From positions 96,001-160,000 of the IMG/VR virus record IMGVR_UViG_3300013212_000088: a stretch of DNA of 64,000 nucleotides. The stretch is one strand, 5' to 3'. The stretch comes from a virus (taxonomy: Duplodnaviria > Caudoviricetes). Of this stretch, positions 59,234 through 63,111 are shown one piece after another (the stretch's first letter is position 1; the number at the start of each line of letters is the position of its first letter). The position numbers were made by a program, and so were the translations under genes. The notes beneath the pieces are model-generated. The model saw only the letters and a list, made by a program, of their open reading frames with translations. It did no database searches and was not told where the DNA came from.

Positions 59234-60068
59234 AAACCAAAAAGAGTACTATCATAACAAAGTTCGTGAGTTTGAAAAGCGCACAGGAAAAAGTATGAAT
59301 GTTAAGGGTGTTAGTAAAATGTATGATTGTAATATTGAATATGCTATATATGACACTCCAGCTGCTATGAACATGATGCAAAAACACGGATGCTATATCT
59401 ATCACAGTTTATTAGCAGAAGAAGACCCTCGCCCTAATGGTACTGACTGGCAGATGTATGCTTTCGCTTATGTAAATGGCAAGGTATACAAATACTATTA
59501 TGAAACCAAACAATGGGGTGCAGAAGTTAAAGATTTTACACATCACCAAAATGAAGACAAAACTTGGAAAGCTGCGAAGTTGGATAAGGCTAATTTCCCA
59601 TATACTTTAGATCCAGGTGAAGATTACTTACCTTATGCAGTCGAAAACAAGCATATTGGCTCTAATTTTGATGATTTTTTAAAGACAAATAAAATTGAAC
59701 TAAAAAGAGATATCAATTGGGCTGTAAAAATGCTTAATGCTGGAAAGATGATGTCTAGAGAAGGTAATCCTAGTCTTACATTATTTCCTAAAAAATATGA
59801 CCATGCAGAATCCACAATCACCACAGAAGATCTTTTTGCTGAAGATTGGGTTGTGGTGCAGAGTAAATCATTCAAAGATGTAGTGGATGATTTAAATGCT
59901 GGAAAAACAATCAGACGTAAAAGTTGGCATTCTGATTGGGGTGTTGGTAAATATGCTAGATACGGCAAAATTATTTATTTAGATTTAATTGCTGATGACT
60001 GGGAAGTTGTTGATGTCGTAGCTGAAGTTGATAAAATTCAAAAAGACCTAAAAGATGGAAAAATTTAG
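59199..60068 (+). CDS. Multidomain protein: unknown N-terminal domain, XRE-leader-like peptide, and two miniature DUF2829/Tad2-like units
   Basis: NKHIGSNFDDFLK, then INWAVKMLNAGKMMSREG..EDLFAEDWVVV and SFKDVVDDLNAGKTIRRKSW..DLIADDWEVV. The true start is probably downstream of 59199. Confidence 0.65.
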   Translation: MHWRKPVEELPKNQKEYYHNKVREFEKRTGKSMNVKGVSKMYDCNIEYAIYDTPAAMNMMQKHGCYIYHSLLAEEDPRPNGTDWQMYAFAYVNGKVYKYYYETKQWGAEVKDFTHHQNEDKTWKAAKLDKANFPYTLDPGEDYLPYAVENKHIGSNFDDFLKTNKIELKRDINWAVKMLNAGKMMSREGNPSLTLFPKKYDHAESTITTEDLFAEDWVVVQSKSFKDVVDDLNAGKTIRRKSWHSDWGVGKYARYGKIIYLDLIADDWEVVDVVAEVDKIQKDLKDGKI

Positions 60069-60255
60069 TGCAATTTTATTATCAGCAATTTTTGTCTGTT
60101 CCTTATGTAGCTGGGCTTACTTTCTTATAGGATCATTTAAAGTTGTTATTAAGAAAGATCGATCTTTCTTGCAATTCACTTCTTCTTTTCTTATAATTAG
60201 TGGAATGTTAAGTAGTTTGTTTTTCTTGGTTCTGAGAGTATTTTATGGAAGCTGA
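60055..60255 (+). CDS. Small two-TM membrane protein
   Basis: Two hydrophobic stretches separated by KKDR. Confidence 0.6.
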   Translation: MEKFSAILLSAIFVCSLCSWAYFLIGSFKVVIKKDRSFLQFTSSFLIISGMLSSLFFLVLRVFYGS

Positions 60256-60514
60256 GCCTAGAATTTACAGTGAAGAATATGTAAGAGGGCGTATATGGTC
60301 TTTTACTAGATTTAATAAATATTTACGACAAATTGCTCATATTTTTTGTGAAGAGTTTCAATATGACAAAGATGACATTATTGAAGTTAGTCTTTGTGAT
60401 GATGGCAAAACAGTCTGGGTTCATTTTGACTCTGGCACAATTGGTTTTGCTTCTGAATTACTTTGGGATAACAATGTAAGAGAAACATTTAGAAAAAATT
60501 ATAAGGTAGACTAA
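60245..60514 (+). CDS. Hypothetical protein
   Basis: 89 aa; overlaps both neighbours in operon fashion. Confidence 0.6.
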   Translation: MEAEPRIYSEEYVRGRIWSFTRFNKYLRQIAHIFCEEFQYDKDDIIEVSLCDDGKTVWVHFDSGTIGFASELLWDNNVRETFRKNYKVD

Positions 60515-60729
60515 TGCTGCCAATACCACATGATATAATTGAAAAGCTAAATGATGGATATTTTTTAATTGTTAAAGATGAAAAAAATATTACAGCTTGG
60601 CGAATCAAAGATGGTGAGCTTCAAAATAGGTGCAAGCATAAAACTGGTACAACTCATTGGATGACAATAAAGTATCTTATCTTGCCCATGGAAGCTGAAT
60701 ATTCGTTTAAGAAGATGAATGGAGAATGA
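60514..60729 (+). CDS. Paralogue family B, copy 1
   Basis: DIIEKLNDG..WRIKDGEL..W..LPMEAEYSF; aligns by eye with 60739 and 62649. Confidence 0.6.
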   Translation: MLPIPHDIIEKLNDGYFLIVKDEKNITAWRIKDGELQNRCKHKTGTTHWMTIKYLILPMEAEYSFKKMNGE

Positions 60730-60738
60730 GTGGAATAA

Positions 60739-60969
60739 ATGTTTAATATTTCTTTTGATATAATATACAAATTGAAAATGGGCTTTGTCGTTGTTCAAAA
60801 GCATGACAATGGTGTTTCAAAATGGAGAATCTTAGGCGATAGATTTGAGTCTTGCTTTTGTGATGAAAGTGTAACCGAGAACATCTGGGTTAAAGCTGAT
60901 GTATTGACTCTTGATCCTAATGCTTCTTATAGTTTTGTTCCAAAAACAAAAAATAAAAATGACTGGTAG
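60739..60969 (+). CDS. Paralogue family B, copy 2
   Basis: MFNISFDIIYKLKMG..WRILGDRFE..W..LDPNASYSF. Confidence 0.6.
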   Translation: MFNISFDIIYKLKMGFVVVQKHDNGVSKWRILGDRFESCFCDESVTENIWVKADVLTLDPNASYSFVPKTKNKNDW

Positions 60970-61228
60970 AGAAGTATTAACACATTTACACGCTGGCTAC
61001 ACTCTTAGGCGAAAAGAATGGGAGCCTGACCAAAAGTGTAAAGCTTATTTTAGTGAGGATATGTGGTCTGTAAAGATTAATATTAACGACCCAATATTAG
61101 GAGCTTTAGACACTCATTTAGTACCACAATGGGTTCCTGAAAAGCCTGAGTTTTCCAATTATGTATGCTACTATGATATTATTGATAACGGTGATTTATT
61201 AGAAGACGATTGGGAAATCGTAGAATGA
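60959..61228 (+). CDS. DUF2829/Tad2-like protein (MTG subtype)
   Basis: Start revised to 60959. MTGREVLTHLHAGYTLRRKEW..GDLLEDDWEIVE. Confidence 0.65.
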   Translation: MTGREVLTHLHAGYTLRRKEWEPDQKCKAYFSEDMWSVKININDPILGALDTHLVPQWVPEKPEFSNYVCYYDIIDNGDLLEDDWEIVE

Positions 61229-61452: not shown

Positions 61453-61705
61453 AGTTATTGACGCTTTAATGGAAGGTAAACCAATCTCAAGAACTGGTTG
61501 GGAAAATAACAACTATATCTTCTATGACAAAAATGACAATTGTTTTGTATTTGTAAATTATCCAGATGACATTGAAAAAAGATATGAATTGGCATCTGTA
61601 GGTCTTGATTTATACCCCCGTGATATAATTGCTGATGATTGGGATATTGATGATTGGGATCCAGACCATATTGTTGACGCTAACAAAAAGGTAGATGAAG
61701 AATGA
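61439..61705 (+). CDS. DUF2829/Tad2-like protein (MKFSE subtype)
   Basis: MKFSEVIDALMEGKPISRTGW..PRDIIADDWDI. Confidence 0.7.
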   Translation: MKFSEVIDALMEGKPISRTGWENNNYIFYDKNDNCFVFVNYPDDIEKRYELASVGLDLYPRDIIADDWDIDDWDPDHIVDANKKVDEE

Positions 61706-61720
61706 CTTGGAGATGCTGGA

Positions 61721-61939
61721 ATGAAATTTTCTGAAGTAGTTGACTCATTAATGGCTGGTAAACGTGTGCGTAAGACCAATTGGGAAAGCAAAACTGCTTT
61801 CTTTCTCTACGACAAGGAAGATAACACTTTTGATTTCTACGAAGTCTTAGATGGAGAAGTATGTAGGACTCAATTTTACACGGAGCTTAATCTTACTCCT
61901 AAAGATTTGATGTCTGACTTCTGGGAGGTTGTAGAATGA
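61721..61939 (+). CDS. DUF2829/Tad2-like protein (MKFSE subtype)
   Basis: MKFSEVVDSLMAGKRVRKTNW..PKDLMSDFWEVVE. Confidence 0.7.
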   Translation: MKFSEVVDSLMAGKRVRKTNWESKTAFFLYDKEDNTFDFYEVLDGEVCRTQFYTELNLTPKDLMSDFWEVVE

Positions 61940-62649
61940 CTGGAATTGAAGCTTTATCCCTGTTAAAAGATGGCAAAACTTTAAGAAGAGAATCCTGGGA
62001 ACCTCATGAAAAATGTAAAGCTTTAGATTTCTTTGGTCAATGGATTGTACACCTGATAAAAGAACATGATGATGAAAAGTTAGACAAAGAATTAGAGTCA
62101 ATATTTCAAAACAGTTTTACATTTACAAAGACCACTTTTGATGATTTCTTTGGATTATTTGATACAATAGATGCTGGAGAATTTCTTCATGATGATTGGC
62201 AAATTCAAAATGGCGAAAAAGAGAGACAAATAATTATAGAAAATATTATTATTCAAGCAGTTGACTGTTATCGACATGACTATTGGAAAGTAAGTTTAGA
62301 TTTGCTTGCCCAATTAAATATTTTTGATGCTATAAGTGATGATTCTTATTTGGGTAATGGGTCAGAACCTCTAAATGAAGATGGTTATGCCTATCTTGAA
62401 ATTGATTCTGATTGTAGTATTTTTGATAAAGCGATGAAGTTCTACAAAAAAGAATATTCGCTTGATTTAGATACACTTACAGAAGCTTATTGTGACGAAT
62501 ATGAAGATTATCGTGACTGGCTTGATCAATTAGATTCATATGATGTAGAGCTCTTAGATGAAAAAGGCTATACTGTTGATAATGTTCCTGAAGATTTATC
62601 TGCTGTTTTGATGGCGGATGAAGATGACGAAGAAGAGGATGAAGATTAA
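61936..62649 (+). CDS. DUF2829/Tad2-like N-terminal domain (MTG subtype) fused to a very acidic C-terminal domain
   Basis: MTGIEALSLLKDGKTLRRESW..GEFLHDDWQI, then about 145 aa rich in D/E ending DEDDEEEDED. Confidence 0.65.
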   Translation: MTGIEALSLLKDGKTLRRESWEPHEKCKALDFFGQWIVHLIKEHDDEKLDKELESIFQNSFTFTKTTFDDFFGLFDTIDAGEFLHDDWQIQNGEKERQIIIENIIIQAVDCYRHDYWKVSLDLLAQLNIFDAISDDSYLGNGSEPLNEDGYAYLEIDSDCSIFDKAMKFYKKEYSLDLDTLTEAYCDEYEDYRDWLDQLDSYDVELLDEKGYTVDNVPEDLSAVLMADEDDEEEDED

Positions 62650-62879
62650 TGTTAAATATCAATTTTGATTTATTTTATGAATTGAAACAAGGTTCTGTAA
62701 TTTCTAATACAGATAAGGATGTTGTCAAATATTGGAGAATGGTTGATGGTAATTTAGAAACAAGAATGGTCATCAATAAAGATGCACAAGATGATTGGTA
62801 TGTCACTGATCTATTTGTATTCCCTGTAGATGGAAAGTTTAATATTGAAGAGCGTTTTGAAAGATTTAGTTATGGATGA
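62649..62879 (+). CDS. Paralogue family B, copy 3
   Basis: MLNINFDLFYELKQG..YWRMVDGNLE..W..FPVDGKFNI. Confidence 0.6.
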   Translation: MLNINFDLFYELKQGSVISNTDKDVVKYWRMVDGNLETRMVINKDAQDDWYVTDLFVFPVDGKFNIEERFERFSYG

Positions 62880-63111
62880 AAACAAAGCTAAACGCCTTGA
62901 AAATATCGGCTTTAAAGTGGGGACACTAGCTGATTTTCTTAATCTTAACCCAGAAGAACAATCACAAATTGATAATGTCATAATTAAAAACGGCAAGCCA
63001 ATTGGTATTTGTGATTGTTTGGGTAAAGGAAAAGGATCTTGTAAAGGCAATGGATGGATAAGAGATGGAGCTGGATATCAAAGATGTCCTTACTTTACAT
63101 CTTTCGAGTAA
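62872..63111 (+). CDS. XRE-leader-like peptide fused to a DnaJ-like Cys/Gly zinc finger
   Basis: Start revised to 62872. MDENKAKRLENIGFKVGTLADFLNLNPEE plus CDCLGKGKGSCKGNGW..RCP. Confidence 0.6.
   Translation: MDENKAKRLENIGFKVGTLADFLNLNPEEQSQIDNVIIKNGKPIGICDCLGKGKGSCKGNGWIRDGAGYQRCPYFTSFE

Follow-up and report, generated by a model that had tools for sequence, protein, structure and literature searches.

Orphan N-terminal elements of HigA/XRE antitoxins joined to unrelated modules in a giant freshwater phage: candidate toxin-binding decoys

Why would a phage encode the N-terminal leader of a bacterial antitoxin with neither the helix-turn-helix (HTH) domain nor the toxin gene that define such an antitoxin? 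The question is raised by two open reading frames (ORFs), of 289 and 79 amino acids (aa), within a window of 64,000 nucleotides that comprises bases 96001–160000 of the 261-kb IMG/VR virus record IMGVR_UViG_3300013212_000088. The record derives from a giant freshwater phage with a G+C content of ~32%, its completeness is estimated at 73%, and a megablast search of the GenBank phage collection revealed no record similar to it. From 57.8 kb of the window onward the + strand carries a dense run of small ORFs, many of which match the Tad2-like Pfam family PF11195, and it is here that a first-pass annotation had recognized two leader peptides of the XRE antitoxin type and read them as decoys, captured by the phage, against toxin–antitoxin (TA)-based abortive infection. 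Both peptides proved to be homologues of the N-terminal toxin-binding element of two HigA/XRE subgroups, with a match far beyond chance. The ORFs are not to be filed as antitoxins, since the two defining features of the HigA type, the HTH domain and the adjacent toxin, both fail; rather, they carry an antitoxin element, and may well serve the phage as minimal decoys, orphaned from any toxin gene, that bind HigB/Gp49 toxins and so counter abortive infection.

The two leader-bearing ORFs

The larger ORF, P0001 (59199..60068, + strand), begins with a TTG codon that lines up with the ATG of its homologue L054, and its product consists of a variable N-terminal part with no family match, a HigA-like β1-α1 motif and two Tad2-like units. 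The motif, leader type 1 (ENKHIGSNFDDFLKTNKIE, 59643..59699, + strand), corresponds to the N-terminal end of XRE antitoxins that pair with Gp49 toxins, and also to β1 (IGSN) and α1 of Streptococcus pneumoniae HigA. Its core, NKHIGSNFDDFLK, occupies residues 150–162 (59646–59684), internal in the chain and exactly where the first-pass annotation had placed it, between an N-terminal part of no recognizable family and the Tad2-like part. The two short Tad2-like units follow immediately behind the motif (59706..60010, + strand, boundaries approximate). They are shortened and in tandem, with conserved blocks INWAVKML...DLFAEDW and FKDVxDDL...DLIADDW across the P0001 family, and the C-terminal part matches PF11195 (E 1e-5) at 26.4 bits against a cut-off of 25, the best stretch covering only residues 224–244. 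An AlphaFold2 model of residues 124–289, with a mean predicted local distance difference test score (pLDDT) of 36, was too poor to confirm a Tad2-like fold. That the leader-1 motif might be a general trait of Tad2-like domains was rejected, as the other PF11195 ORFs of the window are without it.

Homologues of P0001 are present in 14 viral contigs in three different N-terminal architectures, and all of them show K-x-[IV]-G-S-x-F-D-x-F immediately before the Tad2-like tandem. The K, G, S, F, D and F of the leader are invariant among phage homologues down to 59% identity. The common form of the protein is 183 aa long (L002, 2388–2939) and lacks an extra domain of ~100 aa that is present in P0001 (residues 25–123; window 59199–59570 compared), and a third lineage (L059, 3734–4000) has an unrelated N-terminus of 89 aa. 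No family match was obtained for the N-terminal parts of these variants.

The smaller ORF, P0002 (62872..63111, + strand), for which some gene callers choose an upstream ATG at 62830, is headed by leader type 2 (residues 1–34, MDENKAKRLENIGFKVGTLADFLNLNPEEQSQID, 62872..62973, + strand), which corresponds to the N-terminal end of XRE antitoxins in another group that pairs with Gp49 toxins. The peptide first noticed here, MDENKAKRLENIGFKVGTLADFLNLNPEE, corresponds to residues 1–29 and is indeed followed by a four-Cys, Gly-rich module. This Cys/Gly knuckle (62974..63108, + strand) reads GKPIG-C-x-C-x-G-x-GK-x2-C-x-GNGW ... C-P, with C49, C57 and GNGW among the residues invariant in the alignment of the P0002 family, and is joined to other N-termini in P0107, P0109, P0110 and P0113. 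Searches with the knuckle gave no family or structure match, and the ESM Atlas returned viral hypothetical clusters only. The structure model of P0002 was of low confidence (pLDDT 52). Close homologues number 86, every one of them in metagenomic or viral contigs, and genes for P0001 and leader-2 proteins occur together in 11 of the 14 related viral contigs with P0001 homologues.

Neither ORF encodes an HTH family recognizable in Pfam (E up to 1) or NCBIfam (E up to 10), in agreement with the first-pass annotation, and NCBIfam and PHROGs searches gave no informative family for the phage ORFs.

Relationship of the leaders to bacterial antitoxin N-termini

The two peptides had been taken for the leaders of two bacterial XRE families, which a search with each peptide was expected to retrieve. 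Both families exist, and it was by indirect routes that they were reached. Word-based searches with residues 128–200 of P0001 returned fragments of its own family only, and those with P0002 returned close phage homologues and no XRE proteins. When 1.84 billion representatives were searched (hmmsearch) with a hidden Markov model (HMM) of the P0002 family, no protein with an HTH appeared up to E 0.001; apart from a spurious repeat protein (P0108), the matches were all additional leader fusions of the HTH-less kind, and searches of the PDB with the phage peptides alone produced nothing meaningful. The link to XRE N-termini was instead provided by pattern scans, hhalign comparisons and HMMs built from the bacterial side.

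For leader 2, the alignment of the phage leaders supplied a pattern that was scanned against 185,579 species genomes and identified 16 loci. Most encode proteins of 104–150 aa that begin MDAxKRKRLEAAGFRVGTVAEFLxLTPEE and continue into an HTH_3, HTH_31 or HTH_37 domain. For leader 1, 401 genomes from a single phylum were searched with the fishing pattern G-S-x-F-D-D-F-L, which found XRE proteins including L024 (MNKHTGSNFDDFLADEGILE...), L031 and L034. The protein at L024 has 381 relatives with N-termini of the form MNK[HY][ST]GSNFDDFL[AE], and one of these reads exactly MNKHIGSNFDDFLE, so that 12 consecutive residues of leader 1 are identical to a natural antitoxin N-terminus, the NK[HY] portion of which lay outside the fishing pattern.

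Profile comparisons gave the same picture. The P0002 family aligned to the bacterial XRE set by hhalign with a probability of 98.5% (E 1.6e-15), the 34 aligned columns being 56% identical, and the P0001 family aligned to 90 XRE proteins with a probability of 95.9% (E 6.3e-9) over 19 columns, ENKHIGSNFDDFLKTNKIE being matched to MNKYTGSNFDDFLADEGIL. HMMs were also built from the bacterial leaders alone and run against a six-frame translation of the whole 261-kb record. The leader-2 HMM matched P0002 alone (48.9 bits, E 7e-14; next best 0.74, reversed decoys 2.8) and the leader-1 HMM matched P0001 alone (25.8 bits, E 1e-6; next best 1.3, reversed decoys 0.11). Within leader 2, the positions conserved in both the phage family and the antitoxins are G13, F14, F22, L23 and L25. 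When the two leaders are set side by side, FKVGT-LADFL and HIGSN-FDDFL, they look like variants of one element, as judged from their sequences.

Toxin genes beside the bacterial relatives

HigA/XRE antitoxins of these subgroups neutralise Gp49/HigB-type toxins, which are ribosome-dependent mRNases. The bacterial leader proteins are HTH_3/HTH_31/HTH_37 antitoxins with PF05973 toxins of the Gp49/HigB type immediately upstream. For leader 2, a toxin HMM located an ORF of the Gp49 type whose end lies immediately ahead of the leader gene at 10 of 15 bacterial loci (L004–L018; L019, which is not of the XRE type, was excluded), and Pfam assigns the upstream ORFs to PF05973. For leader 1, a Gp49 toxin lies upstream at all three full-length loci (L024, L031 and L034) and at L081, a Methyloprofundus genome being among these. 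Proximity to RelE/ParE-type toxins had been anticipated for at least the first family; in the event, both groups lie directly downstream of Gp49/HigB toxins of the RelE/ParE superfamily. The arrangement also occurs on a 24-kb viral contig (L080), where a Gp49 toxin precedes a full leader-2 XRE antitoxin; this toxin is split into two overlapping frames (1088–1487), perhaps by a frameshift that left the neighbouring antitoxin intact.

At L010 (2663–3330), the partner of the Gp49 toxin is a protein of 110 aa in which leader 2 precedes a C-terminal part with no HTH or Pfam match. Because the leader is kept here with a non-HTH tail, it is the constant element of the toxin–antitoxin pair. The protein itself is an antitoxin whose body has been exchanged.

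Other bacterial loci show further variations. At L005 (3448–3960) and L014 (3463–3981), both from Armatimonadota metagenome-assembled genomes (MAGs), a conserved 170-aa ORF follows a long-tailed leader-2 antitoxin (148–150 aa), and the ORF of L005 has a weak match to SecB (PF02556, E 0.074, below cut-off). From their sequences these loci may be HigBA-chaperone systems, i.e. toxin–antitoxin–chaperone (TAC) systems. Short HTH-less bacterial ORFs of 48–68 aa that comprise only leader 2 or leader 1 are found at L004 (3001–3207), L007 (3001–), L009 (188–), L021 (1480–1647) and L022 (1480–1626). Those of L004, L007, L021 and L022 have no adjacent toxin, and at L009 the contig ends 187 nucleotides upstream. 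Such leader-only ORFs could be antitoxins in decay, or else what corresponds in bacteria to the phage decoys.

Within the phage record, a PF05973 search (E up to 1) found no Gp49-like toxin, and nothing above decoy level emerged when all six reading frames were scanned with a toxin HMM. On these two results a Gp49 toxin of the phage's own was rejected.

Structural equivalence to the HigBA interface

The closest solved relative of the bacterial pairs is HigBA of S. pneumoniae. The toxin associated with leader 1 matched HigB (6AF3_A) with E 8e-8, and the profile of XRE proteins of the leader-1 type (NKHIGSNFDDFL) aligned end to end with residues 3–89 of HigA (6AF3_B, NNAIGSNWKDVRAELF), a match that is weak overall (E 0.035). 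In this alignment NKxxGSNFDDFL falls on NNAIGSNWKDVR, residues 6–9 of HigA read IGSN, and F157 and F160 of P0001 fall on HigA W10 and V13. For the leader-2 XRE proteins 6AF3_B is likewise the best solved relative, from residue 27 on, leaving the first 26 residues in the same N-terminal position.

In the solved complex, β1 of HigA (residues 6–9) forms an intermolecular sheet with β1 of HigB (PMC7984235). The interface residues of HigA α1 and α2 are W10, V13, R14, E16, L17, F18, E22, S26, R29, V30, M33 and S34, of which W10, V13, L17 and F18 are in contact with HigB (PMC7984235). As β1 and α1 of HigA lie at the HigB interface, and given the profile alignment, the phage motif therefore corresponds to β1 and α1. 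According to a preprint on a HigBA-chaperone system, it is the disordered N-terminal region of HigA that neutralises HigB (bioRxiv 10.1101/2024.02.24.581848).

Modelling of a peptide–toxin complex had been suggested as a check, and for leader 2 its outcome was in line with the prediction. Residues 1–36 of P0002 modelled with the bacterial Gp49 toxin of L006 gave a score of 0.69, as opposed to 0.01 for the best of three controls; among 80 solved complexes 58 attain this mark, and among 110 mismatched pairs 2 do so, counts that are only rough given the use of custom alignments. Three model runs shared at least 95% of their contacts, with a partner pLDDT of at least 80. In the model, toxin residues 5–12 pair with leader residues 13–19, placing the FKVG strand on toxin β1, and leader residues 19–25 pack on toxin residues 25–36, an arrangement that repeats 6AF4. 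The predicted complex shows a likeness to the HigBA interface rather than binding as such, and in that sense supports a putative binding of the toxin by leader 2.

Conservation of the leaders on changing carriers

Both phage motifs are conserved across the phage lineage while their fusion partners change, and they are under purifying selection. The partners within the lineage are the Tad2-like tandem, the Cys/Gly knuckle and, in relatives, a membrane hairpin. Leader 2 in particular is found on other carriers, namely the membrane hairpin (P0106 and L078/L079), coiled or short tails, and in leader-only proteins. Fusions of leader 2 to the transmembrane segment are present in related phages at L078 and L079 (1501–1812), and for P0106 and the leader-only P0116 and P0118 the contigs are too short for an informative context.

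Two genes downstream of P0002, the window contains a 63-aa membrane-hairpin ORF (63374..63565, + strand), a free-standing form of the C-terminal half of these fusions that shares 43% identity (E 3e-19) with the C-terminal half of P0106. The metagenomic protein P0084 (96 aa) is an apparent chimera in which the first half of the membrane-hairpin protein precedes the half of a P0002-family protein that comprises PEEQ and the Cys/Gly knuckle. Its junction lies at the shared 'DFL', which suggests recombination between neighbouring accessory genes at a short common motif. Among the surrounding Tad2-like genes there are also three small paralogous ORFs of 71–76 aa with no family match (60514–60729, 60739–60969 and 62649–62879).

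Proposed mechanism and alternative explanations

Of the antitoxin, the phage lineage has only the strand–helix element ('hGS/T..DFL'), without HTH or toxin gene, and carries it on other modules. The notion that the phage captured this element implies transfer from bacterium to phage, the direction that we infer. In the proposed mechanism, the phage proteins would, during infection, bind the free or newly freed HigB/Gp49 toxin of a putative host TA or TAC defence, by β-strand augmentation onto toxin strand β1 and packing of the helix on the N-terminal helices of the toxin. The fused module, whether Tad2-like tandem, knuckle or membrane anchor, would give bulk or anchoring such that the toxin is kept off the ribosome, and abortive infection would be blocked.

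This decoy reading draws on the homology, the toxin genes beside the bacterial relatives, the absence of HTH and toxin in the phage, the conservation of the motifs and the leader-2 complex model, and a number of observations weigh against it. Of the 34 leader-2 columns aligned by hhalign, 10 were fixed beforehand by the 10-residue fishing pattern derived from the phage, and the similarity is to that extent built in. The similarity of leader 1 spans only 12–19 residues and is without the α2 part of the solved interface. Part of the score of the complex model may be the model's memory of 6AF4, because the arrangement is the same, and the L006 toxin, from a Blastocatellia MAG, is a stand-in. A phage-borne toxin might also lie outside the record, which is only 73% complete. 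The properties of HigA itself count against the reading as well. The antitoxin in 6AF4 leaves the HigB active site uncovered, and peptides that mimic HigA α1 or α2 disrupted HigBA of S. pneumoniae, restored RNase activity and inhibited growth (PMC7984235). A leader on its own may therefore attach to the toxin and yet leave it active. The first-pass view of the leader as the toxin-neutralising part is supported in so far as this segment forms the toxin interface in 6AF4, but binding need not neutralise. A bare peptide may not suffice, as the release of toxin by HigA mimics indicates, and the fused modules probably matter.

Among the alternatives, the best placed is that the motifs are of antitoxin descent and now serve as a generic strand-plus-helix docking tag by which phage accessory proteins join one another or an unrelated host target, playing no part against toxins, which is conceivable but rather less probable than a decoy. 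The presence of leader 2 on very different C-terminal modules and the existence of short leader-only proteins are typical of a portable tag, no toxin partner is detectable in cis in the phage record, and the models of the free proteins are of low confidence. However, the positions conserved in the phage proteins are the same as those conserved in true antitoxins and those that touch the toxin in the model, and no result indicates another partner.

The behaviour of the HigA mimics leads to the principal functional alternative, in which the peptides would attach to the toxin, or contend for its interface with the antitoxin, and drive off the antitoxin of the host, so that HigB is set free in active form; a shutdown of host translation or the death of cells with the module could follow. 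This we regard as unlikely. The α1 and α2 mimics did free active HigB and inhibit growth, with the active site not occluded (PMC7984235), and the phage proteins are without the HTH dimerisation body. Ribosome-dependent mRNA cleavage would, however, strike phage messages too, a doubtful gain for a lytic giant phage, and the leaders always stand on sizeable modules rather than as free peptides, which fits steric blocking or sequestration better. If toxin were nonetheless released, the phage proteins would parallel, in nature, the synthetic peptides that mimic HigA and thereby kill pneumococci.

Finally, chance or convergence on a short amphipathic motif with no shared function is very improbable, and for leader 2 already largely refuted: leader 1 is short, and a conserved but unrelated family of ~500 aa likewise contains G[ST/C]xFDDFL (GCTFDDFL; 9 loci, L038–L046, from the same pattern search), but the 12 identical consecutive residues extend through NK[HY] beyond the fishing pattern, the E values are 6.3e-9 and 1.6e-15, and the matches are unique in the genome when decoys reach E 0.11 or worse.

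Returning to the decoy reading, a broader and more tentative proposal is that the lineage builds modular anti-defence proteins from toxin-binding grafts of 19–34 residues on diverse carriers. An anti-HigB peptide and a Tad2-like signal sponge might thereby be combined in one chain, the hairpin might provide a membrane tether, and the two peptide types might serve two Gp49/HigB subfamilies, a 'minimal antitoxin graft' strategy that would be undescribed for type II systems. If the proteins do bind and silence toxins, they would mark out the smallest element with which a very large antitoxin family can neutralise, or at least bind, its targets. They would also reveal that phages reuse this element as a portable graft on unrelated carriers, a putative Thoeris sponge included, and anti-TA genes could then be sought in the accessory regions of phages by a simple sequence signature.

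Comparison with known systems

With S. pneumoniae HigA the phage proteins share the N-terminal strand–helix element, IGSNW..V..LF in HigA compared with IGSNF..F in P0001. The toxin-binding segment of HigA, β1 and α1 into α2, is present in the phage ORFs, with only β1-α1 recognisable in P0001. Unlike HigA, the phage proteins have no HTH, C-terminal dimerising strand or adjacent toxin. Their element is fused to unrelated modules and, in P0001, lies well inside the chain (residue 150).

Tad2 (DUF2829, PF11195) is an anti-Thoeris sponge. The C-terminal half of P0001 and many neighbouring ORFs match this family, but the units of P0001 differ in being shortened and in tandem, with a Pfam score barely above the cut-off. 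To our knowledge, no Tad2 protein with an antitoxin-like peptide has been described, nor do we know of an antitoxin-mimicking phage inhibitor for HigB/Gp49-type or HigBA-chaperone (HigBAC) systems. TA modules of the HigB/Gp49 type, HigBAC among them, are proven antiphage systems, and a HigBA-chaperone system confers phage immunity (bioRxiv 10.1101/2024.02.24.581848). HigBAC is the likely type of target, of which the phage proteins would be putative inhibitors and not components.

Orphan antitoxins and antitoxin mimics are otherwise familiar among phages and provide the nearest functional parallel, including orphan DarG-like enzymes of T4-like phages that act against DarTG1 (PMC11825919), an ICP1 antitoxin mimic that acts against DarTG (PMC11481870) and a phage-borne DarG2-like protein of a chimallivirus (PMC13309987). 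The likeness lies in a toxin-less relative or mimic of an antitoxin that is encoded by a lytic phage and presumably neutralises a host TA defence. T4 Dmd, in turn, counters RnlA and LsoA. The DarTG orphans and mimics are whole enzymes or dedicated inhibitors and have been tested experimentally, whereas the phage ORFs described here carry only a 19–34-residue element of a type II HTH antitoxin grafted on other domains, with a candidate role in defence against toxins.

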